A stretch of 62,313 nt of DNA from Patescibacteria group bacterium (lineage in GTDB: Bacteria > Patescibacteriota > Minisyncoccia > JAHIHE01). The notes below the pieces were generated by a model. That model was not told the DNA's origin and searched no databases. It worked only from the letters and a program-made list of their open reading frames with translations. Position numbers and translations under genes: made by a program. Positions within the stretch are counted from its first letter, which is position 1, and the number at the start of each line of letters is the position of its first letter. The DNA lies in assembly GCA_018896765.1 (NCBI GenBank), contig JAHILZ010000061.1, positions 1-62,313 of the forward strand. The letters run 5' to 3'. Positions 5,841 through 57,062 of this stretch are shown here, piece by piece.

Positions 5841-5980
5841 TTCGATTCTAAAATTCTCTGATTTTCTTTGTCCATATTAAAAAGCAAAAAACGGTATTTT
5901 TCCGGCAAAGGCTTGCCAGATTCCAAATACTTGATTATATCTCGTTTTTCGTTGTCGGTGAGTTTTAATTTATTATTCAT
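5828..5980 (-). pseudogene. N-terminal remnant of a Type III Mod DNA methyltransferase
   Basis: 50-codon ORF below the track cutoff: MNNKLKLTDNEKRDIIKYLESGKPLPEKYRFLLFNMDKENQRILESKWKK. The GKPLPEKYRFLLF...W.GK pattern is the N-terminus I recall for Type III Mod proteins. No methyltransferase domain follows, and it overlaps the NYN start by 13 nt. Confidence 0.45.
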
Positions 5981-6074
5981 AATTTTATTTTTAAACCAAA
6001 TCAAACTTTTTTTATTTTCCCTTGCAAATCATCCAAATTGCCAACAAAAGATAATTTTAAAAATTCATTCGTCG

Positions 6075-7522: not shown

Positions 7523-7733
7523 TTTGTAAAATTTAGTATATATTTATGTATCGCATTGCCCAAATTCGCGCATCCCCCGACTGAATTTTCTTGCTATAGC
7601 AAGAAAATTCAGTCGTTTTATTTTTACTTGGATAATTGGTATTACCAAAGTGTTTTAAAGAAAAACCAAAATCCCCATTGCCAGGAAATTCAACCTCTGA
7701 GTTTTCCGCGCAAGTTCGTGATTCGTGAAAATT

Positions 7734-7763
7734 CGAGATAAAATTCGCGATTGATTAGTGATT
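7734..7763. repeat. Half copy of family B element overlapping the uvrA stop
   Basis: GAGATAAAATTCGCGATTGATTAGTGATT matches the right arm of the 1958 and 32483 elements. The last uvrA codons (KNH-stop) lie inside it. Confidence 0.55.
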
Positions 7764-12536: not shown

Positions 12537-12785
12537 TCATTTATTGTTTTTGATCATCTCCATTTTTTCTTTTCTTGATAATTTTTTGATTCTGGCCTCT
12601 TCTTTGGAAGCATTTGATCGATTGCGGAATTTTTTGGAATATGCCAGCTTGACCGGCCTTCGCGCTCTCGTGTATTTCGCGCCAAGATTTGAAAAATTAT
12701 GCTCCCATATTCTCCGCTTCAAATCGCGAGCTATGCCGGTATATAAAGTTATATCAGCGCATTTGAGAATGTAGAGATAATACAT
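12537..12785 (-). CDS. GIY-YIG nuclease family protein (small, stand-alone)
   Basis: 82 aa. YYLYIL...LYTGIARDLKRRIWEH... is typical of small GIY-YIG (URI) proteins. Confidence 0.8.
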   Translation of the reverse strand: MYYLYILKCADITLYTGIARDLKRRIWEHNFSNLGAKYTRARRPVKLAYSKKFRNRSNASKEEARIKKLSRKEKMEMIKNNK

Positions 12786-39412: not shown

Positions 39413-40063
39413 TTATTGCTTTAATTTATTCAAATTTTCAACAAGCAAATAAACCGTGGTTGAAGGATTCTTTTTTAAATACGATTTTTCACACTCATGC
39501 ATTTTTATCAAATACTTGGCATTTTTAATTGCCGTTTCTTCCAAATCTTTTATCAAAAAATGCATATTTTCTTTCTTTTTTTCATATTTTTCACTATATT
39601 TTTTTTGTAGAACATCACCTAACTTTTCTTTTATTAATTCTCTGCTAAGAGCCGAGGAAAGTAAATTGAAATGCAATAAAAACCACAGCTCAAAAGATTC
39701 ATTTGAATATGCGACACCTATGTTGCTGGCTTTTGCTTTGTTTATAGCGCTGTCAAAATCTTTATCAAAACTGTCTTTATCAAAAACGACCCAGCATTCA
39801 TCGCTATCCGCTGAGCCGTTTATTTCAATATTTTCTTTATCGATAAAATCTAAAGCATATTCTACAATGCTTAATGTATTATGTCCTGTGCCTTTAATCT
39901 CTATTTTAATATTTCTTCTTCTAATCTCTGCTTCAATTTCTAATTTTTTAGACTCAAAATAATTAACCTCTGTTTTTTCTCCCTCGGTAAAAATATAAAT
40001 TATTTTATATTCATTTCGCGTATTATACTTTCTATTAAATCGTGAATTTTGATTTCTATTCAT
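39413..40063 (-). CDS. RloB-like (Toprim-like) protein, partner of the upstream ATPase
   Basis: About 216 aa from the ATG at 40063. IIYIFTEGEKTEVNYF and CWVVFDKD...VAYSNESFELWFLLHF match RloB-family signatures. It starts 4 nt after the ATPase stop. Confidence 0.7.
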   Translation of the reverse strand: MNRNQNSRFNRKYNTRNEYKIIYIFTEGEKTEVNYFESKKLEIEAEIRRRNIKIEIKGTGHNTLSIVEYALDFIDKENIEINGSADSDECWVVFDKDSFDKDFDSAINKAKASNIGVAYSNESFELWFLLHFNLLSSALSRELIKEKLGDVLQKKYSEKYEKKKENMHFLIKDLEETAIKNAKYLIKMHECEKSYLKKNPSTTVYLLVENLNKLKQ

Positions 40064-40067
40064 ATTA

Positions 40068-41303
40068 TTATATAGATTCAATAAAAGGCAAAGCGCCAAA
40101 CCGTCCTTCAAGATATTTTTTAGAAAATTCCGTATCATTCCTTATGTCGTCGTTAATTTCAGACAAAGAAAACAAATTGCCTGAGCCATATTTATCTTTT
40201 TCTGTAAACCAAATTTGATCTTTAATAAAATCATTTTTATGTGAAATCAAACTAGTATCGTGAGTTGTGACTATCAGCTGAGCATTGTTAGGATTATTTT
40301 TTTCAAAAATATCAACAATAAATTTAGTTAAAAGCGGATGCAAACTATTATCAAATTCATCAATAAGCAAAACCTTACCATTTTCAATAGTATCAATTAT
40401 GGGACCAAGCGCATCAAAAAACTTTTGTGTTCCTACTGACTCATCACCCATATTAAACCTTTCAAGTCCTATTTTATTATTTTTTGAGTCAAATTTGCTA
40501 TGTGAAAAAAATACAATATCCATTGTTTCAAAACCATCTTTTTTATCAGGAAATACCGTTTGTTTTTCAATAGGTTTAGGAATTATTGTTTCTTTAACTT
40601 CTACGGTTTCAATAGAAAAATCAGCCTTTTGTAAAAAAGTTATTATTTTTTCTCTTGCCTCCATATTTTCTTTAACTAATTTTACAGTATATCCTCTATA
40701 AGCGCCATTTCCTCCCCCGCTAATAATATTGATATTTTCAAAACCATCCACTATCTTTATAGCAAGAGGATTATTCCATTGTGCGGCTGCTGATAAAAAT
40801 AATACTTCTTTCCTTGTTTTGGTTTTTATATCTTCACTTTCTGTAAAATCATTAAACACCTTAATAGAATGTTCGTTTCTGATTAAATATTGTTTTTCTT
40901 TTCCATTAGATAAAATTTCAAATAAATTTTCTGCTACTATTTTTTCTTTGAGAATTGAGAGACTGTATTTAAAAATTTGTTCATCAATGGAAAAAATAAC
41001 TTCAAAAAAAGAAGGTTGCCCGCTTTTATCTGACAATACAAATGGAATATATGGTAAGTCGGCATTTTCAGGGTTATTTGCTGAATAAATTATTCCGGTT
41101 TTTAAGATTATAAAAGCGCTTAACAACGTACTTTTGCCGGAAGCATTTGGTCCATATATTAAGGATGTTTTTAATAAATTTTCGCCATTACTATCAAAAG
41201 CATGTTCACCTTTTCTGGTAAGCATAGAAAAAGTCGCCTTATTTTTAAAGATTTTAAAATTTTCTACCGAAAACTCAATTAATGAAACTTTCATATTTTG
41301 CAT
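40068..41303 (-). CDS. AAA_21/ABC-type ATPase (AbiL/OLD-like defence ATPase)
   Basis: 411 aa. Walker A LIYGPNASGKSTLL, Walker B LLIDEFDNSLHP and TTHD. Confidence 0.75.
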   Translation of the reverse strand: MQNMKVSLIEFSVENFKIFKNKATFSMLTRKGEHAFDSNGENLLKTSLIYGPNASGKSTLLSAFIILKTGIIYSANNPENADLPYIPFVLSDKSGQPSFFEVIFSIDEQIFKYSLSILKEKIVAENLFEILSNGKEKQYLIRNEHSIKVFNDFTESEDIKTKTRKEVLFLSAAAQWNNPLAIKIVDGFENINIISGGGNGAYRGYTVKLVKENMEAREKIITFLQKADFSIETVEVKETIIPKPIEKQTVFPDKKDGFETMDIVFFSHSKFDSKNNKIGLERFNMGDESVGTQKFFDALGPIIDTIENGKVLLIDEFDNSLHPLLTKFIVDIFEKNNPNNAQLIVTTHDTSLISHKNDFIKDQIWFTEKDKYGSGNLFSLSEINDDIRNDTEFSKKYLEGRFGALPFIESI

Positions 41304-41413
41304 ATTATTTACTCAAACTATCTATATTATACATAAACTATAAAAAAAGTCAAGTATTTTGTAAAATCTCCGCACTTTTCTCTTTAGTCAAAAAATATTA
41401 TGCATTACATGAT

Positions 41414-41442
41414 CAAAAAAACCACCCCGCTATCTCGGGGCG
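41414..41442 (-). terminator. Intrinsic terminator downstream of rpoC
   Basis: On the minus strand CCCCG-AGATAG-CGGGG is followed by TGGTTTTTTT, about 25 nt after the rpoC stop. Confidence 0.65.
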
Positions 41443-41467: not shown

Positions 41468-44400
41468 TTATTTTCCGAATCCTGTTCCGGCCGGTATCAG
41501 CTTGCCGATAATGACATTTTCTTTCAGGCCTTTCAATTCGTCCGACTTGCCGAACAAGGCGGCGGAAATAAGCACGCGGGCGGTTTCTTGGAATGAAGCG
41601 GCAGCCAGAAAGCTTTCAGTGGAAAGCGATACTTTGGTAATGCCAAGCAGCAATTCTTCGCCTTTGGCCGGCTTCTTGCCTTCTTTTTTGGCTATGGCAT
41701 TTACTTTATTGTATTGAACCGCTTCCACTACGCTGCCTTCCGGCAATTCCGTATCTCCGGCATCGCTGATTATAATTCTCGAAAACATCTGCCTGACAAT
41801 CAATTCGATATGCTTGTCATTGATGCCTTCTCCTTGAGCGGTGTAAATTTCCTGCACTTCGCCGATAATGTATTCCGCCACCGCCATCTTATCAACCAAT
41901 TTAAAAAGTTCGTGGATATCAATGTGCCCTTCGGTCAATCTTTGTCCTTTTTTGACAGTCGCGCCTTTCTCGACAGAAATCGCGATATCGGAATCTACTT
42001 CGTATTCTTTTACTTCGGCCTCCGCTTTTCTTTTTTCATTAGTCACATTGACGCGGATAATTTTTTTATTGGTCAAAGCGATAACATCTATTACTTTCCC
42101 GTCCACCTCGGAAATCAAGGCTTTTCCTTTTGGAACGCGGGCCTCGAAAATTTCTTCCACGCGAGGCAAGCCCTGAGTAATATCCCGTCCGGCGACTCCT
42201 CCGCTATGGAAAGTTTTCATGGTCAGCTGAGTTCCGGGCTCGCCGATAGCTTGCGCGGTAACAATACCGATAGCTTCGCCTTTAACAATGGGCTTATTCC
42301 TGCCTAAATCATAGCCGTAGCATTTTTGGCAAATTCCCCGTTCGGCCTTGCAGTAAATAACCGTGCGAACTTTAACAGAATCGATTCCGGGAGTATTTTC
42401 AATCACCTTGGCAATATCTTTGGGAATAAATTCTCCCGACGGCGCTAAAACCTTCTTTGTTTTTGGATTAATAATATCTTCCGCGGCGACTCGGCCGTAA
42501 ATCCTCGCCGCGAAACCTCTGCCCAGTTCATATTGATCAATTCTTGGAATCGTAATAAATCGCTTGCTTCCGCAATCAATTTCGTTAATAACCATATCTT
42601 GCGCGACATCGACCAAGCGCCTGGTCAAATAACCGGCGGTGGCGGTTCTAAGAGCAATGTCGGTCATGCCTTTTCTGGCTCCGTGAGTGGAAATGAAATA
42701 TTCCAAAACATCAAAACCTTCCTTGAAACTATTTTTAATCGGCAGCTCGATCGTTTCTCCTGCCGGATTAACAACCAGCCCTTTCATTCCCATCATCTGC
42801 GCGACTACCGCCCAAGAACTTCTTGCTCCGGATTCAATCATCAAAAATACCGGACTATTTTGATCCAAAGTATTTAAAACAGCTTTAGTAACCTTATTCT
42901 TGGTATCGGTCCATGTTTCAATCACTTTGGTTCTCCGCTCTTCGCTGGTAAGGAGCCCCTCATTATATTGATGCTCGATAATTTCCGCCTGTTTTTTCGC
43001 TTCTTCTATCAAAGCGGCTTTTTCCGGCGGTATTTTCAAATCGCTCATCCCCCAGCTAAGCCCGGAGATCGTTACATATTCAAATCCCAATTTCTTAATC
43101 CTGTCGACCAAATCCACGGTTTCATCAGCGCCAGCTTTTTCCAGAGAATCAGCCACCAGCGCTTTCAAATTTTTCGCATCCATAACTTCATTCACAAACC
43201 GCAAAACTTTCGGCAACGCTTCATTAAAAATGATGCGCCCCACCGAAGTCTTGATATATTTGCCTTCATTAAGCTCTTCTTTTTTAATGACATTGATTTC
43301 AAAATCTTTGCGCAGTTTTATTTCCGCCTTAAGATCGATAATATTCAATTGATAACTCAAAATCGCTTCCTTGGCGTCATAGAAAATCTTGCCCTCGCCT
43401 TTGCCGCCGCGCACAATCTTGGTCATATAATAGCATCCTAAAATAATATCCTGATAAGGAATGACGATCGGATCTCCTGTTGCCGGCTTCAATAAATTCT
43501 TGCTTGAGAGCATTATCTCTCTGCCTTCTTTTTGCGCTTCTTCGCCCAGCGGCAAATGCACCGCCATCTGGTCTCCGTCGAAATCGGCATTGAAAGCCTT
43601 GCAAACCAAAGGATGGATTTGGATAGCTTTGCCTTCGATCAGCACCGGATAAAACGCCTGAATGCTCAAGCGATGAAGAGTCGGAGCGCGATTTAAAAGC
43701 ACTACTTTGCCATTGATAATATTTTCCAAAATATCCCAAACTTCCACGGTTTCCTGCTCAATCAATCGAGCGGCGCTCCTGACATTATAGGCATAATTCC
43801 CTTCAATTAATTTTCGCATAACGAACGGCTTGAACAATTCCAAAGCCATATTTTTCGGCAATCCGCATTGATTCAATTTCAATTCCGGCCCGACCACGAT
43901 CACGGAGCGTCCGGAATAATCCACGCGCTTGCCGAGCAAATTCTGCCTGAATCGGCCTTGCTTTCCTTTTAACATATCGGCCAAAGATCTTAATTGCCTT
44001 TTTTGCCCGGTAGAAGCGATAGTCACCTGTCCGCGCTTAATGCTATTGTCGATCAAAGCGTCAACCGCTTCCTGCAACATTCTTTTTTCGTTGCGGCAAA
44101 TAACTTCCGGGGCTTTTAATTCAATCAAATGCTTTAGGCGATTATTGCGATTGATAACTCTTCGGTATAGATCATTCAAGTCAGAAGTGGCAAAACGCCC
44201 GCCGTCCAGCTGAACCATCGGCCTGAGATCCGGCGGAATCACGGGCAAAACCGTGAAGCACATCCACTCGGGTTTTACTCCGGCCTTAATCATTCCTTGC
44301 GCCAATCTTAAGCGCTTGGTAATTTTTTTCCTTATAACATCATTCGTGACGCTTTTCAATTCTTGAGTCAAGGCATCTTTAAGTTTTTTTAAATCGGTGC

Positions 44401-45064
44401 GGACAAGCATTTCTCTCACCGTTTCCGCTCCTGTCCCGGCCTTAAATACGGAACCGAATTTCAGCGATAAATTCCGATATTCAATTTCAGAAATTACTTT
44501 CATCGGAACAATGCTTTTCATTTCCGCCTTTGCCAAATCTCTGGAAGCTTTTAGCTCGGCAATGCCATCCTTTGTTTTCTGCTCTTTGCTTCTTGTTTTA
44601 AATTCCCGATCTATTTCTTTGAAGGCCTCTTCCTTGTTTTTTTCATTTACTTCGGTAATGACATAAGCCGCGAAATAAATAATTTTTTCCAGATCCTGCA
44701 CGGAAATATCCAAAGTCAAGCCAATGCTGGAAGGCACGCCTCGGACAAACCAAATATGAGTAATAGGCACCGCCAGTTTGATATGGCCCATCCGTTCGCG
44801 CCTGACCGAGGAGCGGGTTACTTCCACTCCGCATTTGTCGCAAATGATTCCTTTGTACCTGATTCGCTTATATTTTCCGCAATAGCATTCCCAATCCTTG
44901 GTCGGGCCGAAAATACGCTCGGAAAAAAGCCCGTCCGGCTCCGGCCGCTGAGTCCGATAATTGATTGTTTCCGGCTTTACAACTTCGCCGCGCGACCAAG
45001 CTAAAATGTTTTCCGGGCTGGCTAAGGTTAATTTTACTGATTTGAAGGTTGATGTTTTGTACAT
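41468..45064 (-). CDS. rpoC: DNA-directed RNA polymerase subunit beta'
   Basis: 1198 aa. Zinc-binding CYCGKYKRIRYKGIICDKCGVEV, catalytic NADFDGD and full-length RpoC similarity. Confidence 0.97.
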   Translation of the reverse strand: MYKTSTFKSVKLTLASPENILAWSRGEVVKPETINYRTQRPEPDGLFSERIFGPTKDWECYCGKYKRIRYKGIICDKCGVEVTRSSVRRERMGHIKLAVPITHIWFVRGVPSSIGLTLDISVQDLEKIIYFAAYVITEVNEKNKEEAFKEIDREFKTRSKEQKTKDGIAELKASRDLAKAEMKSIVPMKVISEIEYRNLSLKFGSVFKAGTGAETVREMLVRTDLKKLKDALTQELKSVTNDVIRKKITKRLRLAQGMIKAGVKPEWMCFTVLPVIPPDLRPMVQLDGGRFATSDLNDLYRRVINRNNRLKHLIELKAPEVICRNEKRMLQEAVDALIDNSIKRGQVTIASTGQKRQLRSLADMLKGKQGRFRQNLLGKRVDYSGRSVIVVGPELKLNQCGLPKNMALELFKPFVMRKLIEGNYAYNVRSAARLIEQETVEVWDILENIINGKVVLLNRAPTLHRLSIQAFYPVLIEGKAIQIHPLVCKAFNADFDGDQMAVHLPLGEEAQKEGREIMLSSKNLLKPATGDPIVIPYQDIILGCYYMTKIVRGGKGEGKIFYDAKEAILSYQLNIIDLKAEIKLRKDFEINVIKKEELNEGKYIKTSVGRIIFNEALPKVLRFVNEVMDAKNLKALVADSLEKAGADETVDLVDRIKKLGFEYVTISGLSWGMSDLKIPPEKAALIEEAKKQAEIIEHQYNEGLLTSEERRTKVIETWTDTKNKVTKAVLNTLDQNSPVFLMIESGARSSWAVVAQMMGMKGLVVNPAGETIELPIKNSFKEGFDVLEYFISTHGARKGMTDIALRTATAGYLTRRLVDVAQDMVINEIDCGSKRFITIPRIDQYELGRGFAARIYGRVAAEDIINPKTKKVLAPSGEFIPKDIAKVIENTPGIDSVKVRTVIYCKAERGICQKCYGYDLGRNKPIVKGEAIGIVTAQAIGEPGTQLTMKTFHSGGVAGRDITQGLPRVEEIFEARVPKGKALISEVDGKVIDVIALTNKKIIRVNVTNEKRKAEAEVKEYEVDSDIAISVEKGATVKKGQRLTEGHIDIHELFKLVDKMAVAEYIIGEVQEIYTAQGEGINDKHIELIVRQMFSRIIISDAGDTELPEGSVVEAVQYNKVNAIAKKEGKKPAKGEELLLGITKVSLSTESFLAAASFQETARVLISAALFGKSDELKGLKENVIIGKLIPAGTGFGK

Positions 45065-45096
45065 ACTTTTTTATTTATTAGCGGCTAAAATTATAA

Positions 45097-45855
45097 TTAA
45101 TTGGTTTTTATTTTTAAATCATCAAAATTATATTCTTTTATAATTCCTGCATTAATTCCACCCGTTCCATAAATTTTTAAAATACCTTCTGAAACTGATA
45201 AGCTAGAATAATCTTTTCCAGTATCGGGCAAAGTAATAATTCTTTCATATGAATTTAAATTTGTAAAATATTTAAATTCTTTGTTTATATTTGATGGGTA
45301 GCTAATAAACAATCCTGAAATATCATATACTGATAAAAATTGTTCACTAAAGTTTCCCTTATAGCCAGATAAGGATATTAATTTATCATCTGGTAAAAAC
45401 ACGATATCAAAAATATTTGAGGTACCAAGGACATTAAGTTGAATATTCTCATTGTGTTCTAACGAATAGATTCTTAGTGCGGAGTCGAGTCCACCAGAAA
45501 TATCTTGAAAAACAACATATTTACCTGAAGGAGAAACTATGTTTAATAAAAATTGATAACATTTTGTTTCTGGAGAAAATTCAGAATATTCTGTGTTTAA
45601 AAAGATATCGCCTTTTGTTGTATTAATCTTTATTTTACAACCCTCAACAGTTGCCTCCGAAGAAATAATTTTATCGGTTGTTGGTTGTGATGTTAATTTC
45701 GGAGCTACCACCGTCACAGGTTTAACAACTCTCGGCGTTTCACGATATTTAATCACCGCTATTGTTGAAGCAATGACAACAACCGCCGCGATAATCGCCA
45801 TTCCGGCGAATGTCGAGATTTGAACTGCGCCTTTTTGAGAATTGATTTTTGACAT
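45097..45855 (-). CDS. Membrane-anchored extracellular protein (PD40/TolB-like repeats?), paralogous N-terminus
   Basis: 252 aa. The N-terminus MSKINSQKGAVQISTFAGMAIIAAVVVIASTIAVIKYRE is nearly identical to that of 46832..48187. The rest is beta-rich (SPSGKYVVF...). Confidence 0.4.
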   Translation of the reverse strand: MSKINSQKGAVQISTFAGMAIIAAVVVIASTIAVIKYRETPRVVKPVTVVAPKLTSQPTTDKIISSEATVEGCKIKINTTKGDIFLNTEYSEFSPETKCYQFLLNIVSPSGKYVVFQDISGGLDSALRIYSLEHNENIQLNVLGTSNIFDIVFLPDDKLISLSGYKGNFSEQFLSVYDISGLFISYPSNINKEFKYFTNLNSYERIITLPDTGKDYSSLSVSEGILKIYGTGGINAGIIKEYNFDDLKIKTN

Positions 45856-45900
45856 AATTTAAATTAGTTAATTAGTTTTTATTGAAATGGTTAAAATTTT

Positions 45901-46306
45901 CTGTCATTCCGATTTATCAGCAGATAAAGAGGAATCCCTTAAACCCTATTCATCGGTTAAAACTTTATATAAATCGCTCCAAGTCGGATTATCTATTTTA
46001 ATTAAATTTTGTTTCTTTTCTCTCCTCCATTTCTTGATTTCTTTTTCTCTGTTCATCGCCGAATAAACATCACTACATTGTTCATAATAAATTAATTTAT
46101 GGCAAGCGTATTTTTGAGTAAAACCTTTTATTTTTCCTTCTTTGTGTTCAGCTACCCTTCTCAATAAATCGTTAGTAAAACCGGTATAGAGTGTTCCGCT
46201 TAAACTCGCCATTATATAAACATAAAAACTATATTCTTTTTTCATGTTTTTTAATTAAACACCACGAAGGGATTTCTCGCCCCGAGTACGGGACTCGAAA
46301 TGACAG
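45901..46306 (-). mobile_element. Candidate GIY-YIG mini-element: nuclease gene bracketed by inverted GTCATT-hairpin units
   Basis: Left unit: CTGTCATTCCGATTTATCAGCAGATAAAGAGGAATCC (45901-45937). The right unit (46269-46306) reverse-complements to CTGTCATTTCGAGTCCCGTACTCGGGGCGAGAAATCCC. The right unit supplies the last about 19 codons of the neighbouring Bro-N ORF. Confidence 0.45.
45946..46245 (-). CDS. GIY-YIG nuclease family protein
   Basis: 99 aa. FYVYIMAS..GTLYTGFTNDLLRRVAEHK...REKEIKKWRREKK. Confidence 0.8.
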   Translation of the reverse strand: MKKEYSFYVYIMASLSGTLYTGFTNDLLRRVAEHKEGKIKGFTQKYACHKLIYYEQCSDVYSAMNREKEIKKWRREKKQNLIKIDNPTWSDLYKVLTDE

Positions 46307-46745
46307 AAAACATTAATTTAGTATAACCTTTTTGCAAATATGTTTTCATCGCTCTGTCAAAAGCCAACTCAGGATTTTCAGTTTCTTCTATCCTTTCATA
46401 TCCTACTTTTGCCAGCCACAATTTAAACGGCTCGGCATTGGGAGACGAAATTGATTGAATAAGACGAAATATCGTTTCAGTATCCGCCGTATCAATAATG
46501 CGCATTTTGCCATCCGGAGCAATCATTTTCAACCCGTTACATTTTGTAACGGTTTCGTTTGAACCCTCGTCAATAAGTCTTTTTTTCAATACGCGCCAAT
46601 ATACTTGCGGATTATCGCTATTTGTAAGTGCGGCGATTATATCTACAATCGCAAAATACCACAACTCTTTTTCATCATCCCAATGGCGGCGAATTTGTTT
46701 TTCCCCGAAAATCGCTATGGCTTTATTTTTCAATTGATTTTCCAT
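46251..46745 (-). CDS. Bro-N domain (phage antirepressor-like) DNA-binding protein
   Basis: 164 aa. FGEKQIRRHWDDEKELWYFAIVDIIAALT...LKMIAPDGKMRIIDTADTETIFRLIQSISSPNAEPFKLWLAKVGYERIEE is typical of Bro-N family proteins. Confidence 0.7.
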   Translation of the reverse strand: MENQLKNKAIAIFGEKQIRRHWDDEKELWYFAIVDIIAALTNSDNPQVYWRVLKKRLIDEGSNETVTKCNGLKMIAPDGKMRIIDTADTETIFRLIQSISSPNAEPFKLWLAKVGYERIEETENPELAFDRAMKTYLQKGYTKLMFSVISSPVLGARNPFVVFN

Positions 46746-46751
46746 AAAATT

Positions 46752-46803
46752 AAAAATATCTTGGTCTCAATCCGCTCATCCGACACAAGGCTGATTTTAG
46801 TTT
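46752..46803 (-). pseudogene. Remnant of an ORF6N gene 5' end
   Basis: About 50 bp matching 48832-48883 (codons 4-20 of the intact ORF6N gene: KISLVSDERIETKIF). It has no start codon and stops precede it. It lies directly upstream of the Bro-N ATG. Confidence 0.6.
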
Positions 46804-46831
46804 ATTAAATATAATAGTGAAATTGTAATTT

Positions 46832-48187
46832 TTATTTTATATAAAATTCCTCGCTATGCTTATTATCAATAATAAATTGATATTTACCCGACTCGAAATT
46901 ATTCGGAACATCAAAATCATAATAACCTTTTATTGGTGAAACCGTATTGGTGTTTTCTTCCCATACTAAATTCAATGAAACTACGGGTAATTTGTATAAT
47001 TTTATGCTCACAAAATCGTTTTTACAACCAAACGACTCCCATGTAATTTTATAACTTTTATTTTTTTCCCATTTAATATCTTTTACGGGAGAAATAATAT
47101 TTATTTCTTTATTATCCGCACATTCCGAAAAATTTAAAGATTTTGACAATAAGTCATACTCCTGAATCGCTTTATATACTTTCAGTTGTTTATTTTTATC
47201 TTTCATGGCGTCAATGATTATTTCGTCAAAACCAATATCTTGATTTATATGAAGGGCCATTTCTTTTTCTGCCCAATCTAGAAGCTCTCCGGAAAATAAA
47301 GAAAAGTTCGTCAAAATAATTTTATTATTTTTGAGGAAAATAGTTTTATAATAATAACGAGCGGCGCTTACATCAGAACCCATATATCCAATTATTCTTA
47401 TACCTTGCACATTAATTTGAGAGTTGTAAATAAGATCTACATAAAATCTGCTATCATTTCCCCACATGCGGCCGGGTTTAAATAAAGTAAAATCAGATTT
47501 AATTTCTTCCTCTAGAGTTTTATCTAATTTTTCCGCCTTACTCACTTTTTCTAATATTTGAAATTGTTTTTGTAATAACTCGGGATTGTATATGTATGGC
47601 TCGTATGGTCTGCCACCAGTAATACTGCACTCAAAGCCTCGTTTTTTAAGATCGTCCCATATTTTCATATTATCATATACAAATGATTTATCGTAGCTCA
47701 CCGTTTCAGTTTTGTATGGTTGGCAATTAAAAGAAGTAAGGGATGGAGAGCATTCAAAATATGAATCTCCGCATTCAAAAAATGGTTTGGGTTTAATATA
47801 AATAAATTCCGAATCAACCTTTGGTGTTACCGTAATAAAACCTTCAAAATTATCACTATTTTGTTTTGATATAGTAATTTCATCGTGTATTCGTTCTCCC
47901 GTTCTTCTTATTTTAGGAATTGACCATTCCGAAGGATATTTAAATTCTATATCCAATTCTTTACTTGAATATGTTTGCCAATCTGCAGTTTCATCCGAAT
48001 TTGGTGTCGGCGTAACGCTCGGCGTTAATTCTGGAGTTATCACAACAACTGGAGCGACAACATTTGATATTTCGCGATATTTAATTACCGCAATTGTTGA
48101 CGCCACGACAACAACCGCCGCGATAATTGCCATTCCAGCGAAGGCCGAGATTTGAACTGCGCCTTTTTGGAAACTATTTTTTGACAT
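46832..48187 (-). CDS. Membrane-anchored extracellular protein, paralogous N-terminus
   Basis: 451 aa. The first about 40 aa, and about 120 bp of DNA, closely match 45097..45855. The remainder is unrelated and unassigned. Confidence 0.4.
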   Translation of the reverse strand: MSKNSFQKGAVQISAFAGMAIIAAVVVVASTIAVIKYREISNVVAPVVVITPELTPSVTPTPNSDETADWQTYSSKELDIEFKYPSEWSIPKIRRTGERIHDEITISKQNSDNFEGFITVTPKVDSEFIYIKPKPFFECGDSYFECSPSLTSFNCQPYKTETVSYDKSFVYDNMKIWDDLKKRGFECSITGGRPYEPYIYNPELLQKQFQILEKVSKAEKLDKTLEEEIKSDFTLFKPGRMWGNDSRFYVDLIYNSQINVQGIRIIGYMGSDVSAARYYYKTIFLKNNKIILTNFSLFSGELLDWAEKEMALHINQDIGFDEIIIDAMKDKNKQLKVYKAIQEYDLLSKSLNFSECADNKEINIISPVKDIKWEKNKSYKITWESFGCKNDFVSIKLYKLPVVSLNLVWEENTNTVSPIKGYYDFDVPNNFESGKYQFIIDNKHSEEFYIK

Positions 48188-48233
48188 AAAATAAATTGTT
48201 TAGTTGATTATTATAAACTGCAAATATAATACT

Positions 48234-48308
48234 TTGTCATTTCGACCGTAGGGAGAAATCTGCCATTTTACTTGTTTAAGGAATTCCTCGCTTCGCTCGG
48301 AATGACAA
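48234..48308. repeat. Back-to-back inverted GTCATT-hairpin units without cargo (family C)
   Basis: TTGTCATTTCGACCGTAGGGAGAAATCT ... GGAATTCCTCGCTTCGCTCGGAATGACAA, separated by about 18 nt. Confidence 0.5.
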
Positions 48309-48350
48309 AAAAGAGCATTTCGTAATTTAAGATTTTTTATTTATGATTAT

Positions 48351-48893
48351 TTACCTTAAAAATCCGATTTTGTTGGGAATTTTTTTATCTTGATCTTTTT
48401 TATCTTCCGAAAAACTTTTAAGCGTTTCAAAAATCGCTTTAAAATATTTATTATATTTTTTCTCCAGCTCCTCTATTTTTATCCTTAAATCTTTATTGCC
48501 GGCAATCATTTCTCTCAACTTAATGAATGTTTTGATAATTTGGATATTTACTTGTATAGCCTTTTTGCTGTTTAAAACACTGGAAAGCATAGCTACTCCC
48601 GGTTCAGTAAAAACCAAAGGCACCTTTCGTCTTCCGCCCCAACTTGATATCACAGTTTGTGATGTCAAGACTTGTGACTGCCAAATTTCAGTCTCTTTTT
48701 TATTTAACTGAAACATAAATTCTTCCGGGAAACGCTCAATATTTCTTTTAACCGCTTGATTAAGCGCTCTTGTTTCCACTCCATAAAGCTCTGCCAAGTC
48801 TCTATCAAACATAACTTTCTTGCCTCTGATAAAAAATATTTTAGTTTCAATCCGCTCGTCCGGCACAAGGCTGATTTTAATTTCCTTAAGCAT
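48351..48893 (-). CDS. ORF6N-domain (KilA-N-like) DNA-binding protein
   Basis: 180 aa. IRGKKVMFDRDLAELYGVETRALNQAVKRNIERFPEEFMFQL matches the ORF6N signature. It starts 36 nt after the rpoB stop. Confidence 0.75.
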   Translation of the reverse strand: MLKEIKISLVPDERIETKIFFIRGKKVMFDRDLAELYGVETRALNQAVKRNIERFPEEFMFQLNKKETEIWQSQVLTSQTVISSWGGRRKVPLVFTEPGVAMLSSVLNSKKAIQVNIQIIKTFIKLREMIAGNKDLRIKIEELEKKYNKYFKAIFETLKSFSEDKKDQDKKIPNKIGFLR

Positions 48894-48928
48894 AATTATT
48901 GATAAATCACACGAATAATAATTTTTCT

Positions 48929-51900
48929 CTAAAAATTCCTCTTATCATGTTCCTCTTCCCCTTCCAGCTCAATATTCAATCCCAAAGCTTTAAGCTCATT
49001 TACCAGCACGAAGAAAGAAGCCGGAATATATGGGCTTTTTATCGGCTCTCCCTTGATTATCGATTCATAAGACTTAGATCTTCCGGCAACATCATCGGAC
49101 TTGATCGTCAAAACTTCCTGAAGCGAATGCGCGGCGCCATAACCTTCCAGCGCCCAAACTTCCATTTCTCCGAATCTCTGTCCGCCGAATTGAGCCTTGC
49201 CTCCGAGCGGCTGCTGGGTAATCAGCGAGTACGGCCCGATCGAGCGGGTATGAATCTTGTCTTCCACCAAATGATGAAGTTTCAGCATATAAATAATTCC
49301 TACGGTTGATCTTTCGTTGAATTTTTCCCCTGTCCGGCCATCATAAAGCTGAACCTTGCCGTCTTGGGGCAATCCCGCTTTTACAAGCTCCACTTTAATT
49401 TCTTCCTCCGAAATGCCGTTCAACGCCGGGCAAGCCACCTTGTAGCCCAATTTTACCGCCGCCCATCCCAAGTGTGTTTCCAAAATCTGGCCGATGTTCA
49501 TACGGCTTGCAACGCCGAGAGGATTTAAAATTATATCAACCGGAGTTCCATCCGCCAAATGCGGCATTTCTTCCTCCGGCAAGATTTTTGAAATTACTCC
49601 TTTGTTTCCGTGGCGGCCGGCTAATTTATCGCCAATCGATATTTTTCGAAGCTGCGCGATGCTTACTTGAATCATTTTTATCACTCCGGCTGAAAGCTTA
49701 TCGCCCTGCTCTCTGGAAAATATCTTAATACCGACTACTTTTCCGCGCTCGCCGTGCTGAAGATAAAGCGAAGTATCTTTCACATCGCGCGCTTTCTCGC
49801 CGAAAATCGATCTCAATAATCGCTCTTCCGCAGTCAATTCGCTCTCGCCTTTGGGCGTAATTTTCCCCACCAAAATATCGCCGGATTTTACTTCGGCGCC
49901 GATTCGAATAATTCCTTCCTCGTCCAAATCTTTTAATTTTTCCTCGCCGACATTGGGAATATCCCGGGTTATAATTTCCGGACCCAGTTTGGTATCGCGA
50001 ACTTCAATAGAAAAATCTTCGATGTGAATGGAGCTGAAAACATCTCTTTTCACCAATTTCTGCGAAAGAATAATCGCATCTTCATAGTTCGCTCCGCCCC
50101 AGCTCATAAAAGAAACCAATAAATTTTGTCCGAGAGCGATTTCCCCGTCTTCGGTCCCCGCTCCGTCAGCCAGAAGTCCGCCCGCCGGCACAATTTGATT
50201 TTTTTCCACCCGCACTGTTTGATTAATGCTGGTGGCGGCATTAGACCTGACAAATTTTTTAAATCGATAGCTTTTCTTGGTTTTATTTTTTATGCTTTCC
50301 ACGACCGCGTGGTTCGCGTCTACTTCGATAACTTTTCCTTCTTCGGCAGACAGCGTAACATAGCCGGAATCGGTTGCTACTTTGGCTTCAACTCCGGTTC
50401 CAATAACAGGCGCTTCCGGCCTGATACAAGCCACTGCCTGGCGCTGCATATTCGAACCCATCAAAGCCCTCTGCGCATCATTGTGTTCAAGAAAAGGAAT
50501 AAGAGCGGTGGCAATACTGATAGCTTGATGATGAGCGATATCCATATAATCAACTTTGCTCGCTTCAATAATTCCCGGATTTTGTTTTATGCGGGCCTCC
50601 ACTTTTTCCTCGATAAATCTTCCTTCTTTATCCAACAGCACTCCTGCATGAGCGATATTTACCAAATCTTCGGCAACCGCATCCAGATGAACGACTTGAT
50701 TTGTTACTTTGCCGTTTACCACTTTTTTATAAGGTGTTTCGATGAAACCATAATTATTAACTATGGCATAGCTGGCCAAATGCCCAACCAAGCCGATGTT
50801 CGGACCTTCCGGAGTTTCGATCGGACAAATTCTCCCGTAATGAGAAGAGTGCACATCGCGAACTTCGAAACCGGCTCTCTCTCTCGTCAAACCGCCGGGT
50901 CCCATAGCCGAAAGCCGCCTCTTGTGTTCAAGCTCGGCCAAAGGATTAACCTGATCCATAAACTGGGAAAGCTGGGAAGAAGCAAAAAATTCCTTGATTA
51001 CCGCGACCAGCGGCCGACTGTTTACCAAATGCACCGGAGAAACCAAGGAAGAATCAACCGTGCTCATGCGATCTTTGATATTTCGCTCCATTCGGGTCAG
51101 CCCCAAGCGAAAACGTTCTTGAATCAATTCTCCAACGCCCCTTACTCTTCTGTTTCCCAAATGATCGATATCATCCGCGAGAGCGTTCGCGTTATTGCTT
51201 AATGCGATAATTTCTCTGACTGTTTTTATTAAATCGCTAACTAAAAAAACTCTATGTTCCGGATCATCGGCGAGATTGATGCCTAATCGCTGATTGGCCT
51301 TGTATCGCCCGACTACGCCCAAGTCATAATGCGCAAAATTGAAAAACATATTTTCCACCAATTGCCGCGCGTTCTCGATTGTCGCCAAATCTCCAGGCCT
51401 GATTCTCCGATAAACTTCGATAAAACCATCCTCGCTGCTTTTAGTGGTATCGTGCTTGAGAGTTTCTTCGATAAACTTAATATTTCCCGTATCGATATCT
51501 TTGAATAAATTCAAAATTTTCTCGTTGGTGCTGTAGCCGAACGCGCGGATCAAAGAAGTCGCGGCGATTTTTCTTTTGCGATCAATGCGGACATAGATAG
51601 ATCCGCTTGAATCTGTGTCAATTTCAAGCCATGCTCCGCGATTGGGAATAACTTTCGCGCCAAAAAATCTTCGCTCGGCTTTTTCCGCGGAAAGATGGAA
51701 AAATATCCCCGGAGACTTGATCAGCTGGCTGACGACTACTCTTTCTACGCCATTTATGACAAAATTGCCCCTGTCGGTCATTAAAGGAAATTCTCCAAAA
51801 TAGCACTCCTGCTCTTTTACTCCATGAGTTTTTTTATTGGTTAATCTCGCTTTAACCCGCAAAGGGGCTTCATAAGATACGTTTTTTTCAATCGAGGTTT

Positions 51901-52150
51901 TTTCGTCGTATTTGGCTTCGTCCAGATAATAATCGACAAACTCCAGCTCCAATTCCTTGTTGTAGCTTTTGACCGAACCGACTTCTTTAAACAATTCGCC
52001 TAGTCCTTTTTCGATAAACCAGCGATAGGAGTTATGTTGAATTTCTATTAAATTATGCAAGGGCGTTTCTTTCGCTTTTTTGAAAAAATTCCGCGGCTTA
52101 GCTGAAACGGTTGCGAGAACTTCTCCTTTGGTCTTCTTTGAAACGATCAT
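48929..52150 (-). CDS. rpoB: DNA-directed RNA polymerase subunit beta
   Basis: 1073 aa with full-length RpoB similarity (…GRHGNKGVISKI…, …MNIGQILETHLGWAA…). Confidence 0.97.
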   Translation of the reverse strand: MIVSKKTKGEVLATVSAKPRNFFKKAKETPLHNLIEIQHNSYRWFIEKGLGELFKEVGSVKSYNKELELEFVDYYLDEAKYDEKTSIEKNVSYEAPLRVKARLTNKKTHGVKEQECYFGEFPLMTDRGNFVINGVERVVVSQLIKSPGIFFHLSAEKAERRFFGAKVIPNRGAWLEIDTDSSGSIYVRIDRKRKIAATSLIRAFGYSTNEKILNLFKDIDTGNIKFIEETLKHDTTKSSEDGFIEVYRRIRPGDLATIENARQLVENMFFNFAHYDLGVVGRYKANQRLGINLADDPEHRVFLVSDLIKTVREIIALSNNANALADDIDHLGNRRVRGVGELIQERFRLGLTRMERNIKDRMSTVDSSLVSPVHLVNSRPLVAVIKEFFASSQLSQFMDQVNPLAELEHKRRLSAMGPGGLTRERAGFEVRDVHSSHYGRICPIETPEGPNIGLVGHLASYAIVNNYGFIETPYKKVVNGKVTNQVVHLDAVAEDLVNIAHAGVLLDKEGRFIEEKVEARIKQNPGIIEASKVDYMDIAHHQAISIATALIPFLEHNDAQRALMGSNMQRQAVACIRPEAPVIGTGVEAKVATDSGYVTLSAEEGKVIEVDANHAVVESIKNKTKKSYRFKKFVRSNAATSINQTVRVEKNQIVPAGGLLADGAGTEDGEIALGQNLLVSFMSWGGANYEDAIILSQKLVKRDVFSSIHIEDFSIEVRDTKLGPEIITRDIPNVGEEKLKDLDEEGIIRIGAEVKSGDILVGKITPKGESELTAEERLLRSIFGEKARDVKDTSLYLQHGERGKVVGIKIFSREQGDKLSAGVIKMIQVSIAQLRKISIGDKLAGRHGNKGVISKILPEEEMPHLADGTPVDIILNPLGVASRMNIGQILETHLGWAAVKLGYKVACPALNGISEEEIKVELVKAGLPQDGKVQLYDGRTGEKFNERSTVGIIYMLKLHHLVEDKIHTRSIGPYSLITQQPLGGKAQFGGQRFGEMEVWALEGYGAAHSLQEVLTIKSDDVAGRSKSYESIIKGEPIKSPYIPASFFVLVNELKALGLNIELEGEEEHDKRNF

Positions 52151-52443
52151 AAAAATTGCTCAGTTTCATTTTCACTTAAATTTAAAAAGTAAATTTCAGA
52201 CTCTTTAAAATTCGTGAATTATCCCAATTTCAAAACAAAAAAGAATTCTCCGCTTTTTTCTGAAAACAAAAAAACAGCGAAGATGAGTTTCAAAATATGC
52301 TTGGGGCTAAGGTGAAACTTGTTTAATAAAAAGTATTATAAAAAAATGCTATTTTCCCGCCAAAAATTAAAATAGACCAAAAAAACACTGCGGTCTTTTG
52401 GTAACCTTAATTAATTTATTTAATTTGTTTTGCTCATAGCGTA

Positions 52444-52719
52444 TTAATTTTTCCCGCGCATCCAGTTAAAAACGCTAACAACCGAATTTCCTATTAAATT
52501 GCTGACGAAACTGCTTGATTCGGAGATAAAATAACCCCGAATTTTCTCTTGTTTTTTAAGTTTAACATATCCTAGATTTTTGTCAAGACCCTTAATGATT
52601 TTGTCCGACAGATCTTTTTGATAAGAATCTTTGACCGTATTCAAAATTTCCCTGCCTCTTTGAGCGGAGACTTCCAAAGTTTTCATATCTTTATCGAGTT
52701 TTACCAAAAGTTTTAACAT
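52444..52719 (-). CDS. Hypothetical protein (5' end repeated at 54821 and 56821)
   Basis: 91-aa ORF. Its first about 30 codons recur as truncated copies elsewhere in the window. Confidence 0.3.
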   Translation of the reverse strand: MLKLLVKLDKDMKTLEVSAQRGREILNTVKDSYQKDLSDKIIKGLDKNLGYVKLKKQEKIRGYFISESSSFVSNLIGNSVVSVFNWMRGKN

Positions 52720-52760
52720 AAATAAAAATAATTTACTGCCAATTAATCGCCTTACAATGA

Positions 52761-54068
52761 CTATTCATTATCAATTTCTTTATCCAGCATATATTCTTTT
52801 TGCTCTTTTAGGGAATATTTTATCGTATCAGTTATTTCATCGTCGTAAAATTCATGATAAAATATTATTGAATCGGTCTCTAAATCATATCGACAAGACG
52901 CTCCGGCAGTCCTAAGCGCACTAAGCGCATCATACACGACTTCAAAGCTCGGAACAGCATAAATGCTTCCCAGCGAATCACTTCCCATACCACCCCAAGA
53001 GCAAACATAAAAATATTTTTCATCAGGCGTAAAACCAACATTCGCTTCATCTGGAAATGCCATAAACGACAAAATATCGTTTTTATTCTTTGTGTCATAG
53101 ATATAACTTAAAGATCCTTCGTGCACACCTGCCCAATACATAAGATAATTACCACTTGGTGAAAAACTTGGACTGTGGAAACGAACAGGCCCCCAATCAT
53201 CATAATCATCATTTAAATCACCATATTCCATACGCCCCTTATTAATAATTGTTTCTTTTCCCTCTTCAGATAAAACTGCATAATTATAATTTGCATCTTC
53301 TTTTACATAAGCTGACATACTACCAAATATAGCCGGTTCGGGAAGAATACTAAATGATGCAAGAATTAAGGGAATCGCGCAATATTCATCTTCGTATAAG
53401 TCTTGTGCCTCGAAATCTGAACTATAAGAACCTATAAAAAAATTATTCTCTGTTTCGAAATAAACATCAGATGTAATGGCTCCCGCTTGTGCCCCCGAAT
53501 TACCTCCTGTTCCCGTATAAACAAGCGCAAAAGGAATCTCTCTTGAAGGAATAATCATTTTTTGAACAGAATACCTAATTATATAATCTTCGTATTCGGA
53601 ATTTTTTTCAGCGGCAAGAGCGTTAAGATATTTTTTTAAACCAGAAAAATCAGAGGGTTTATTTTTTACAGTTAAAATTAACTCTACATGGTCTGAGGAA
53701 ATCTTAACAGAAGAAATGTCTTCTGGATTTTCTAATGTACTAACGGTCTCGAAATCCCAACTGCATGGGTACTGTAGTCCAAAACCATATTCTTTATTTT
53801 TATAGGTCTTCCAGTCACTAAAATCAACCGCCGGGCACGGGGTAATCCGCGTCGGTTTTGCAATTGGTGTTACTTCCGGAGTTGATACTATTGTCGGTGT
53901 TTCTATTGCGACAATCGGCGTTTCATTTAGAATTTCTGAGGCTTTTTTATTACCCGCCAAATACCCCGCCACGCACATTACAATCACGAATGAAATTGGT
54001 GCGGTTGCGGATAAAATTAATTGTGCTGTAGCTAAATTTGGCGATTTAGGTTTTTGTTCCGGTGTCAT
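52761..54068 (-). CDS. Membrane-anchored extracellular protein (PD40-like segment)
   Basis: 435 aa. N-terminal anchor, Pro/Thr linker, then a beta-rich domain (FSPSGNYLMYWAG...). Confidence 0.4.
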   Translation of the reverse strand: MTPEQKPKSPNLATAQLILSATAPISFVIVMCVAGYLAGNKKASEILNETPIVAIETPTIVSTPEVTPIAKPTRITPCPAVDFSDWKTYKNKEYGFGLQYPCSWDFETVSTLENPEDISSVKISSDHVELILTVKNKPSDFSGLKKYLNALAAEKNSEYEDYIIRYSVQKMIIPSREIPFALVYTGTGGNSGAQAGAITSDVYFETENNFFIGSYSSDFEAQDLYEDEYCAIPLILASFSILPEPAIFGSMSAYVKEDANYNYAVLSEEGKETIINKGRMEYGDLNDDYDDWGPVRFHSPSFSPSGNYLMYWAGVHEGSLSYIYDTKNKNDILSFMAFPDEANVGFTPDEKYFYVCSWGGMGSDSLGSIYAVPSFEVVYDALSALRTAGASCRYDLETDSIIFYHEFYDDEITDTIKYSLKEQKEYMLDKEIDNE

Positions 54069-54186
54069 AAAATTTTATTTCACTATGATAATTCATATTA
54101 CCATAGTGATGAGTTAAAAATTATAAAAATAAAGTTAAAATAATTTTCAATTTGTCTGTCAGTAAATTCTTGTTTTTTGAACATAC

Positions 54187-54732
54187 TTATAAAATTTTAA
54201 TTACCTTACCGCTAAAAATATTCGCTATGAATTCGTCTTTATCTTTTTTTCTTTTGGCAAAATCCTTTTCGGTCAAATCAACAACATTTATTTCACGCTT
54301 AATTTTTTCTTGTATCGGCAATAACGCTTTTGTCGCTTCCATAACAGCATGATCGCCGATTATCAAAACATCAATATCGCTTTCCGCCTCAAAGTCTCCG
54401 TTAGCATATGAACCGAAAATATAAGCTTCCTTTATTCCTTTTATTTTTTTTAAACCATTGGCGATCAAATATCCCAAACCATATTTTAATTCAAAAGCCT
54501 TTTTTATTTCTTTCAATAGTGGATACTTTTTATTAATAAAATAATATCTTTGCTCTCCTAAAAATTCAGAATTTAAAATTCCTTCCTTTTCCAATTCTTG
54601 CAATTTACGGCTTAAATTTCCCGGGTCGGCTTCCAATATGCGAGCCAATTCATTGATATAATTTTTCTTGCTCGGGTTTATAAAAAAATATCTTAATATT
54701 TTAGCGGCAATCTCTGATTTTAAATTAAACAT
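54187..54732 (-). CDS. wHTH plus nucleotidyltransferase (MNT-like) protein
   Basis: About 181 aa from the ATG at 54732. LARILEADPGNLSRKLQELEKEGIL (wHTH), then AYIFGSYANGDFEAESDIDVLII (GS...DxD NTase motif). Confidence 0.6.
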   Translation of the reverse strand: MFNLKSEIAAKILRYFFINPSKKNYINELARILEADPGNLSRKLQELEKEGILNSEFLGEQRYYFINKKYPLLKEIKKAFELKYGLGYLIANGLKKIKGIKEAYIFGSYANGDFEAESDIDVLIIGDHAVMEATKALLPIQEKIKREINVVDLTEKDFAKRKKDKDEFIANIFSGKVIKIL

Positions 54733-54873
54733 ATTATTATAGTTATTGTTAATATTTACAATAACTATTGTAGCATTATACAATGGTTTAATCAAGAACA
54801 AAAAAACCGTTAATGTAAAACTTCGATAGTTTTCATATCTTTGTCGATTTTTACCAAAAGTTTTAACATAAAT

Positions 54874-56820: not shown

Positions 56821-57062
56821 ATAAGTATCTTTAGTTGCGCTCAAAATTTCCTTGCCTCTTTGGGCGGAAACTTCCAATGTTTTCATATCTTTGCCGAGTT
56901 TTACTAATAATTTTAGCATAAATAAAAATAACTTACTTGGCAATTAAAATTAATCTTGCCGCCGCCAACCCCGATGGTTTGGGTTTTTGTTCCGGAAACA
57001 TAAATTTTGCTTCACTATGATAATTCATATTATCATAGTGAATAGTTTAATAATTATAAAAT
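56821..57062 (-). pseudogene. Internally deleted second copy of the module at 52444-54130
   Basis: 56979-57062 matches 54047-54130 (upstream region plus the first codons, MFPEQKPKP...). 56821-56950 matches 52621-52750 (5' end of the 91-aa ORF, truncated as MLKLLVKLGKDMKTLEVSAQRGKEILSATKDTYGNTKCMVL). Confidence 0.6.

Follow-up and report, generated by a model that had tools for sequence, protein, structure and literature searches.

The adjacency of rpoB and rpoC is among the most conserved in bacterial genomes, and because equal amounts of the two products are required, strong selection is presumed to maintain the order of the genes and their co-transcription. The relevant passages of a survey of this operon cluster describe genes inserted at other points, such as nrdHEF between rplL and rsmC, and favor 'duplication followed by asymmetric loss'; they mention no insertion between rpoB and rpoC (PMC8046335). 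Here we describe such a case in a 62,313-nucleotide stretch of DNA, hereafter the window, from a Patescibacteria group bacterium (assembly GCA_018896765.1, contig JAHILZ010000061.1), in which a block of 3,864 bp (45065..48928) containing five open reading frames (ORFs), all on the minus strand, separates rpoB from rpoC. As in the insertions covered by those passages of the survey, a few genes lie inside one of the most conserved gene orders of bacteria, and the relics present in the window (remnants of gene 5′ ends, and a paralogue upstream of rpoB) fit the route of duplication and asymmetric loss; unlike them, the insert lies between rpoB and rpoC themselves, appears to consist of selfish, defence-type and surface-protein genes, and still varies between genomes of about 96% identity instead of being a fixed feature of a family (PMC8046335).

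Two other described systems resemble parts of the insert. Ssn proteins are single-domain GIY-YIG nucleases, specific for single-stranded DNA and flanked by hairpin repeats (NTS) of the form CGTCATTCCCGCG..GCGGGAATC, and the authors liken this 'repeat-gene-repeat' layout to an insertion sequence (IS) (Chenal et al. 2025, PMC11893778). One representative of the candidate defence family PDC-S05, to which the first gene of the insert is related, has been reported to protect E. coli from T7, T5 and T4; it carried a RhuM domain and is another member of the family than the one described here (bioRxiv 10.1101/2024.09.26.614923).

The ORF list and translations show both rpoB (1073 aa) and rpoC (1198 aa) to be intact, and the full set of Pfam RNA polymerase domains is present in each, including seven Rpb2 domains in rpoB. 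The five genes between them encode, in the direction of transcription, an ORF6N protein, a 451-aa membrane-anchored protein, a Bro-N protein, a GIY-YIG protein and a 252-aa membrane-anchored protein, so that rpoC does not start within a few hundred nucleotides of the rpoB stop without an intervening gene, as it does in a contiguous rpoBC pair. The intact pair, the five genes between them and the three domain assignments had been proposed in the original prediction from the sequence alone and are borne out by the ORFs and Pfam matches, with one small correction: the ORF6N gene starts 35 nt, not 36 nt, from the rpoB stop, while the 32 nt between the end of the last ORF and the rpoC ATG stand. 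The insert and its flanks have a GC content of about 30%, against about 45% for rpoB and rpoC. None of the five insert proteins has a match in NCBIfam, and Rfam, searched with a permissive threshold, yielded neither an RNA family nor an intron nor any other structured element for the block; a lone Rfam match inside rpoB was dismissed as chance.

The split is real and rare. We compared the locus with 79 loci from species-representative genomes, the best of which is only 64% identical, and with 78 Patescibacteria loci on JGI metagenome contigs (58–71% identical), these 157 being the loci in which both rpoB and rpoC could be placed. The distance between the two genes is less than 0.9 kb in every one of the 157, so that the claim that the arrangement is exceptional among bacteria, other Patescibacteria included, holds. 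The nearest relative outside the genus (L166) has a 118-nt spacer, which cannot be aligned with that of the window to map the insertion point. Only two of the Patescibacteria metagenome spacers that we examined contain additional ORFs: in L095 an ORF for an IS200-like Y1 transposase lies between rpoB and rpoC (6694-7410; PF01797, 1.4e-6), and in L137 there is an unannotated 146-aa ORF at the same place (4692-5132).

Independent assemblies reproduce both junctions. A contig from run SRR27456247 (L082) matches window positions 44057-48984 at 100%, covering the whole insert and both junctions and extending into 1 kb of rpoC; contigs from SRR11548473 (L083) and SRR11548472 (L084) cross the rpoB junction, and that of L165 crosses the rpoC junction. 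Contigs of three separately assembled runs are 99.97–100% identical to the window across both junctions. In addition, two metagenome-assembled genomes (MAGs), one of them GCA_018902975.1 (contig JAHIPU010000093.1), encode identical proteins and, by accession numbering, have five genes between rpoB and rpoC.

Comparison with close relatives shows that the block is variable at the level of strains. Five contigs were recovered via 90% identity clusters of rpoB and rpoC; a protein search with the rpoC N terminus returned only fragments, with a best identity of 77%, and missed these closest relatives, and looking up the exact rpoC of the window gave no match. In L174 the rpoB and rpoC genes are 96–97% identical to those of the window and the spacer is 310 nt. 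Its positions 1169-6325 correspond to window 54079-48929 (96.8%), with homology ending exactly at the rpoB stop codon, and positions 6606-10284 correspond to window 45094-41416 (97.2%), with homology restarting 30 nt before the rpoC ATG. The L174 spacer encodes a 51-codon relic of a membrane-protein gene ('MSKSS...DKILSTFKFTK*'), whose C-terminal tail is that of two related proteins, mem263 of L171 and mem365 of L172; because of this relic we suggest that a membrane-protein gene already stood in the spacer when the window and L174 strains diverged, and that it was later expanded in the window strain and collapsed in L174. L172, L173 and L176 are 86–88% identical to the window and have spacers of 50 nt (L173 equals L172 over the compared segment of rpoC and in its matches to the window). 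In a matrix of rpoC identities the relatives fall into four roughly equidistant species-level lineages.

The fifth relative, L171 (SRR22388057; rpoC 94% identical in amino acids and 86% in nucleotides), is filled differently again. Upstream of its rpoC lie, in order, mem253, a 63-nt copy of the rpoC 5′ end, a PDC-M05A/B pair, mem263 and the 30-nt block that the window, L174 and L171 share and that the relatives with 50-nt spacers lack; mem253 and mem263 encode 253-aa and 263-aa paralogues of the membrane proteins of the insert. The copy of the rpoC 5′ end (L171 836-900) includes the ATG, stands behind mem253 about 1.9 kb upstream of the real rpoC, and resembles a scar left when something inserted into the start of rpoC. 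The PDC-M05A/B pair (1010-1959), a helix-turn-helix (HTH)-nucleotidyltransferase with a small partner, is intact. We also note an ORF6N homologue, 66% identical, downstream of the rpoC terminator in L172 and L173. A recent insertion had been proposed, as opposed to a fixed trait of the lineage; the split is indeed not fixed, given a genome 96–97% identical that lacks the array and three relatives with 50-nt spacers, but a single recent event does not account for it, as a membrane-protein gene was apparently already present before the window and L174 separated.

Direct repeats within the block point to how it is built. A 191-nt sequence recurs at 45692-45882, 2,332 nt from its first copy and 78% identical to it, and a 55-nt sequence near the start of the ORF6N gene (48829-48883) recurs 2,080 nt away, 87% identical, as a relic of that gene (Table 1). 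Because of these two pairs of direct repeats, with spacings of 2.3 and 2.1 kb, we interpret the block as two tandem modules, each with a DNA-binding gene followed by a gene for a membrane-anchored protein: module 1 comprises ORF6N, a pair of hairpins and the gene for the 451-aa protein, and module 2 comprises the ORF6N 5′ relic, Bro-N, a GIY-YIG cassette and the gene for the 252-aa protein.

The two membrane-anchored proteins are alike over their first 55–70 residues only (73–76% identity over the first 55–59), and their genes also share the 5′ leader; both show weak similarity to a 435-aa protein encoded upstream of rpoB. The family of the 451-aa protein is small, with 11 matches. An alignment-based AlphaFold model of this protein (pLDDT 64.8) resembles CyanoP in a Foldseek search (2lnj, E 1.2e-4, TMt 0.58), and the core of its ectodomain is predicted to have a PsbP/Mog1-like fold, with which weak Pfam matches to PsbP_2 in paralogues agree. 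The 252-aa protein is predicted to be N-terminally anchored and all-beta; its single-sequence AlphaFold model was unusable (pLDDT 43.8). Variable surface proteins, for example the variable lipoproteins of mycoplasmas, have a conserved 5′ region followed by divergent bodies, and the proteins of the window are similar in that a leader and anchor that are 73–83% identical are followed by unrelated ectodomains, and in that the paralogues are clustered and recombining. Unlike the variable lipoproteins, the family has only a few paralogues, and we see no phase-variation machinery, invertible promoter or repeat tract.

The GIY-YIG gene occupies a cassette with terminal inverted repeats and a hairpin on either side of the gene, at 46272-46304 (-) and 45903-45935 (+). 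The hairpins follow the pattern GTCATTYC-GA-(variable stem-loop)-GA-GRAAT, with covariation in the outer stem (ATTCC/GGAAT versus ATTTC/GAAAT) and with inner stems that differ yet remain complementary. Four copies of the motif are present in the window, all of them within the block, and only a further four in 2.8 Mb of sequence from other loci. Two of the copies in the block form the inverted pair between the ORF6N gene and that of the 451-aa protein, with the sequences GTCATTCC-GA-GCGAAGC-GA-GGAAT and GTCATTTC-GA-CCGTAGG-GA-GAAAT; as RNA this pair would form a long stem (−30.4 kcal/mol, z −2.9), and it looks like an empty version of the cassette, similar to a miniature inverted-repeat transposable element (MITE). 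A further copy of the cassette is present in L175 (722-1139), 88–90% identical from terminal repeat to terminal repeat and with unrelated flanks, adjoining a truncated HTH-nucleotidyltransferase gene in a context other than rpo; dN/dS between the two GIY-YIG genes is 0.14. Terminal inverted repeats and differing contexts are what is expected of a MITE- or IS-like element. The cassette carries no recognised transposase, the GIY-YIG domain being its only ORF, and no target-site duplication was seen around either copy or around the block as a whole.

The nearest solved structures of the GIY-YIG protein are those of UPF0213 proteins (1zg2, 3.6e-9). It resembles Ssn in consisting of a GIY-YIG domain only, in its length of about 100 aa and in the hairpins on both sides of its gene, and the window hairpins, like NTS, start with GTCATTCC and end with GGAAT; they disagree with NTS in other parts of the repeat and, unlike NTS, contain GA/GA internal loops as well as an inner hairpin that varies. 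Most likely the protein is an Ssn-like nuclease whose substrate is the single-stranded form of its own hairpin repeats. We rejected the idea that a group I intron or an intein is the host of the GIY-YIG domain: the non-coding part amounts to only about 120 nt, and neither rpoB nor rpoC is interrupted. Elsewhere in the window, at 12549-12782 (-), lies the gene of another, distant GIY-YIG paralogue (35% identical), which no NTS-like hairpins flank.

The two DNA-binding genes had been described as phage-type. Their place between intact rpoB and rpoC genes is confirmed; the label itself is too narrow, as both match candidate defence families of PADLOC, the ORF6N protein over its full length (PDC-S05, 2e-58) and the Bro-N protein over its N-terminal half (PDC-S13, 1.2e-65, positions 4-139 of 286). 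Phage profiles are also matched, by ORF6N the anti-repressor-like phrog_4792 (1.9e-28) and by Bro-N positions 3-139 of 274 in phrog_15286. The closest relatives of the Bro-N protein are 75–84% identical and 275–285 aa long; since, in addition, only the first ~140 of ~280 profile positions are matched, the gene is truncated. Homology spans residues 1 to about 143, and the tail is read from the left hairpin of the cassette. Forms of Bro-N truncated to about 145 aa recur in the database. The family has more than 7,900 close relatives in many phyla of the CPR (the Patescibacteria), on thousands of chromosomal contigs, and an identity of 75–84% across phyla whose rpoC genes are only ~60% identical argues for horizontal spread. 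A scan of the viral contigs of IMG/VR found only distant relatives of ORF6N (at most 46% identity) and none of Bro-N. From their profile matches the DNA-binding genes of the insert are most likely selfish or defence-type.

The locus resembles defence islands and hotspots flanked by core genes: its content varies among strains between conserved flanks, as the comparisons with L174, L172, L176 and L171 show, candidate genes of PDC-S05, PDC-S13, PDC-S01, PDC-M05A and AbiL cluster there, and the block is host-like in GC and carries no integrase. It differs from known hotspots in that the array is located within an essential operon, separating rpoB from rpoC, and in that its genes are all co-oriented with the operon and without terminators.

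The absence of a convincing terminator had likewise been suggested, and neither a general terminator scan nor a scan for hairpins followed by T-runs found a strong minus-strand terminator in the block; within the insert no hairpin of −9 kcal/mol or below is followed by a T-run, and the pair of hairpins at 48233-48315 has no U-tract. Strong terminators are present only in the rpoB leader and after rpoC. The leader (52237..52363), with a promoter-like site and a hairpin that could act as an attenuator, is the putative start of the transcription unit. AT-rich promoter-like sites precede the membrane-protein genes and rpoC, the match just before rpoC (45118..45090) having a TATAAT that overlaps the conserved 30-nt block. 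Because the five genes are co-oriented with rpoBC and no strong intrinsic terminator lies in the block, rpoC is most likely expressed by read-through from the rpoB promoter, possibly with a contribution from weak promoters before the membrane-protein genes. The relatives with 50-nt spacers must, by this spacing, co-transcribe rpoB and rpoC, and the site would tolerate only insertions that are co-oriented and free of terminators.

Taken together, these observations make it probable that the block is a strain-specific accessory array that has accumulated at a recombination hotspot in the rpoB-rpoC spacer of this Patescibacteria genus. The gene for an N-terminally anchored, PsbP-like extracytoplasmic protein of a fast-evolving family would have arrived first between rpoB and rpoC, and because a paralogue lies just upstream of rpoB, an intrachromosomal duplication is its likely source. 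An ORF6N gene would then have joined it and the two-gene module would have been duplicated in tandem; in the second copy the body of ORF6N would have been replaced by a Bro-N gene from the family spreading horizontally among CPR, and this gene would later have been truncated next to the hairpin-bounded GIY-YIG cassette of about 425 nt. In sister strains and species the same site would have collapsed to the 51-codon relic, stayed compact at 50 nt or been filled differently.

Several points weigh against this interpretation or parts of it. We found no recombinase, target-site duplication or att site that would account for the arrival of the pieces, and the order of events is inferred from relics. 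The contig of L171 ends in a hairpin upstream of mem253, so that its link to rpoB is not assembled; moreover, the identity of the L174 relic to L171 is 93%, against 86% for rpoC, and genes exchanged horizontally between species could give the appearance of common descent, the L171 array being a product of either descent or exchange. The defence and nuclease roles are proposed from profile matches to candidate families. The published SRM motif, HGTCWYN(0-2)YYVSBRHN(0-5)WNVSBRGN(0-2)RNCYNB, has no match in the window, for which reason we call the hairpins only NTS-like. As to expression, promoter-like matches are frequent in this AT-rich DNA (48 were found where 31 are expected) and the hairpin pair at 48233-48315, at −30 kcal/mol as RNA, could attenuate read-through, so that read-through and an internal promoter for rpoC are both putative.

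Other explanations fare less well. A chimeric assembly, with unrelated DNA joined in between the two genes, might be suspected in a short-read MAG with repeats inside the block and with contigs of related MAGs breaking near the locus, and mis-assembly had been named as something to exclude; it is effectively refuted by L082, which comes from another sequencing project and assembler and covers 44057-48984 without a mismatch, by the junctions in L083, L084 and L165 and the concordance of two MAGs, and by the clean and sensible points at which the flank homology of L174 stops. Were rpoB and rpoC instead permanently uncoupled in this lineage, each with its own promoter and with the intervening genes as ordinary residents, one would understand why the window, L174 and L171 all have a membrane-protein gene or its relic upstream of rpoC, why the 30 nt conserved among these three genomes overlap a TATAAT, and why rpoBC has already parted here from the rplKAJL and str operons. 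We consider this improbable, as in three of the five lineages or strains of the genus the spacer, at 50 nt, is too short to hold a promoter, as the window, L174 and L171 differ completely in content, and as the five-gene array is seen in the window strain only.

Two kinds of mobile element also have to be considered. The ORF6N and Bro-N domains are classically those of phage anti-repressors or Bro proteins, and GIY-YIG nucleases do occur in phages, so that the block could be what is left of a phage or satellite that had integrated with the spacer as its target. Pfam and PHROGs searches of the five ORFs found no integrase, structural or replication genes, and a repeat scan found no att-like direct repeats bounding the block; its GC is host-like, the matches in IMG/VR are as distant or absent as described above, and the Bro-N family sits on thousands of CPR chromosomal contigs, all of which make a phage origin highly improbable. 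Slightly harder still to credit is homing, in which the GIY-YIG protein, in the manner of the T4 seg and mob genes, would cut conserved rpoB or rpoC sequence and copy itself and its neighbours into the spacer: the ORF does lie between two highly conserved essential genes at a site polymorphic for presence and absence, and the duplicated rpoC 5′ end of L171 resembles a repair scar, but the 99-aa protein is a catalytic domain only, not joined to the DNA-binding domain of a free-standing GIY-YIG homing endonuclease, the same cassette occupies a non-rpo site in L175 rather than one fixed site, and the L171 array and the L174 relic lack a GIY-YIG gene. The split is best explained as a real and unusual but mechanistically ordinary genomic hotspot, and neither as a prophage nor as the outcome of homing or a trait fixed in the lineage.

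A more far-reaching and rather doubtful extension of the hotspot interpretation is that the essential rpoBC operon of this CPR genus offers a landing pad, and a platform for expression, to selfish genes and to those of defence type or for surface proteins. Insertions would be selected for co-orientation and lack of terminators, would gain constitutive transcription from the RNA polymerase promoter, and could hardly be silenced or deleted by the host without endangering rpoC; the Ssn-like cassette would be truly mobile, its cuts in single-stranded DNA promoting local rearrangements. If so, 'operon hitch-hiking' would be a persistence strategy and the cassette would offer the first genomic evidence of Ssn movement. 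Apart from this, the locus is a natural polymorphism at the strain level, with 50 nt, 310 nt or 3.9 kb between rpoB and rpoC in genomes that are 86–97% identical. It suggests that the constraint on this adjacency can relax in a slow-growing symbiont lineage with a reduced genome provided that the inserts are co-oriented and terminator-free, it illustrates the colonisation of core operons by accessory genes, and it provides a concrete system for asking how operon integrity affects RNA polymerase stoichiometry. The Ssn-like GIY-YIG cassette in two genomic contexts, with homology that ends at the hairpins, is a clean case that bears on the mobility of such cassettes.

Table 1. Features of the rpoB-rpoC locus (window coordinates unless a contig is named; -, minus strand;., no strand assigned).
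Feature	Position	Strand	Remarks
91-aa ORF	52444-52719		also L172 9424-9699; L174 2535-2810; L176 332-607
rpoB-leader promoter-like site	52363..52335	-	TTGGCG-17-TATAAT
rpoB-leader hairpin and T-run	~52285-52237	-	-16.2 kcal/mol; between promoter-like site and rpoB ATG
rpoB	48929..52150	-	
ORF6N gene	48351..48893	-	180 aa; PF10543, 1.3e-33
Solo inverted NTS-like hairpin pair	48233..48315	.	between ORF6N and 451-aa protein gene
Direct repeat, copy 1	48024..48214	-	5′ leader and N-terminal anchor-coding part of membrane-protein genes
451-aa protein gene	46832..48187	-	no Pfam match; hydrophobic N-terminal helix
ORF6N 5′-end relic	46749..46803	-	ORF6N residues 6-25, 80%; just upstream of Bro-N; starts module 2
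Bro-N gene	46251..46745	-	164 aa; PF02498, 5.9e-9
GIY-YIG cassette	45895..46320	-	~425 nt; terminal inverted repeats TTTTYTGTCATTYCGA; two NTS-like hairpins; 99-aa ORF
GIY-YIG gene	45946..46245	-	99 aa; PF01541, 4.6e-16, residues 7-80
252-aa protein gene	45097..45855	-	no Pfam match; N-terminal helix near-identical to that of 451-aa protein
30-nt block	45065..45094	-	directly upstream of rpoC ATG; common to window, L174 and L171
rpoC	41468..45064	-	
Intrinsic terminator after rpoC	41412..41442	-	CCCCGAGATAGCGGGG then T-run; -15.7 kcal/mol

The rpoBC operon is not attached to ribosomal-protein operons in the window. Upstream of rpoB are the 91-aa ORF, the gene for the 435-aa membrane protein, PDC-M05A, a NUDIX protein gene and a PDC-S01 ATPase gene, with relic copies of gene 5′ ends between them, and PADLOC matches among the neighbours on both sides are those to AbiLi (1.9e-85), PDC-S01 (1.9e-83), PDC-M05A (2.3e-39) and AbiLii. 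The AbiLi and AbiLii genes (AAA_21 and RloB; 40068-41303 and 39413-40138) are directly downstream of the rpoC terminator; in L174 their place is taken by genes for DUF6398, a PDC-S62-like protein and HisG, and homology restarts at PyrI (window 38821). From the accessory genes on both sides and the replacement of AbiL in L174, the operon therefore lies inside a variable region similar to a defence island.

The 91-aa ORF is directly upstream of rpoB throughout the genus, at the usual place of rplJ/rplL, and matches no family. Copies of its 5′ end and of that of the 435-aa gene are found at 52621-52737, 54820-54873 and 56821-56937, and at 54012-54130 and 56945-57062, which suggests that the process of duplication and replacement seen in the rpoB-rpoC block may also operate upstream of rpoB. 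The PDC-M05A gene of the window (54187-54801), encoding an HTH-nucleotidyltransferase, has lost its partner, of which a 16-codon relic is left at 54137-54184. At some distance, at window 4235-4331 (+), there is a match to DUF3800-V RNA, with an Rfam score of 64 bits against a gathering score of 37.4.

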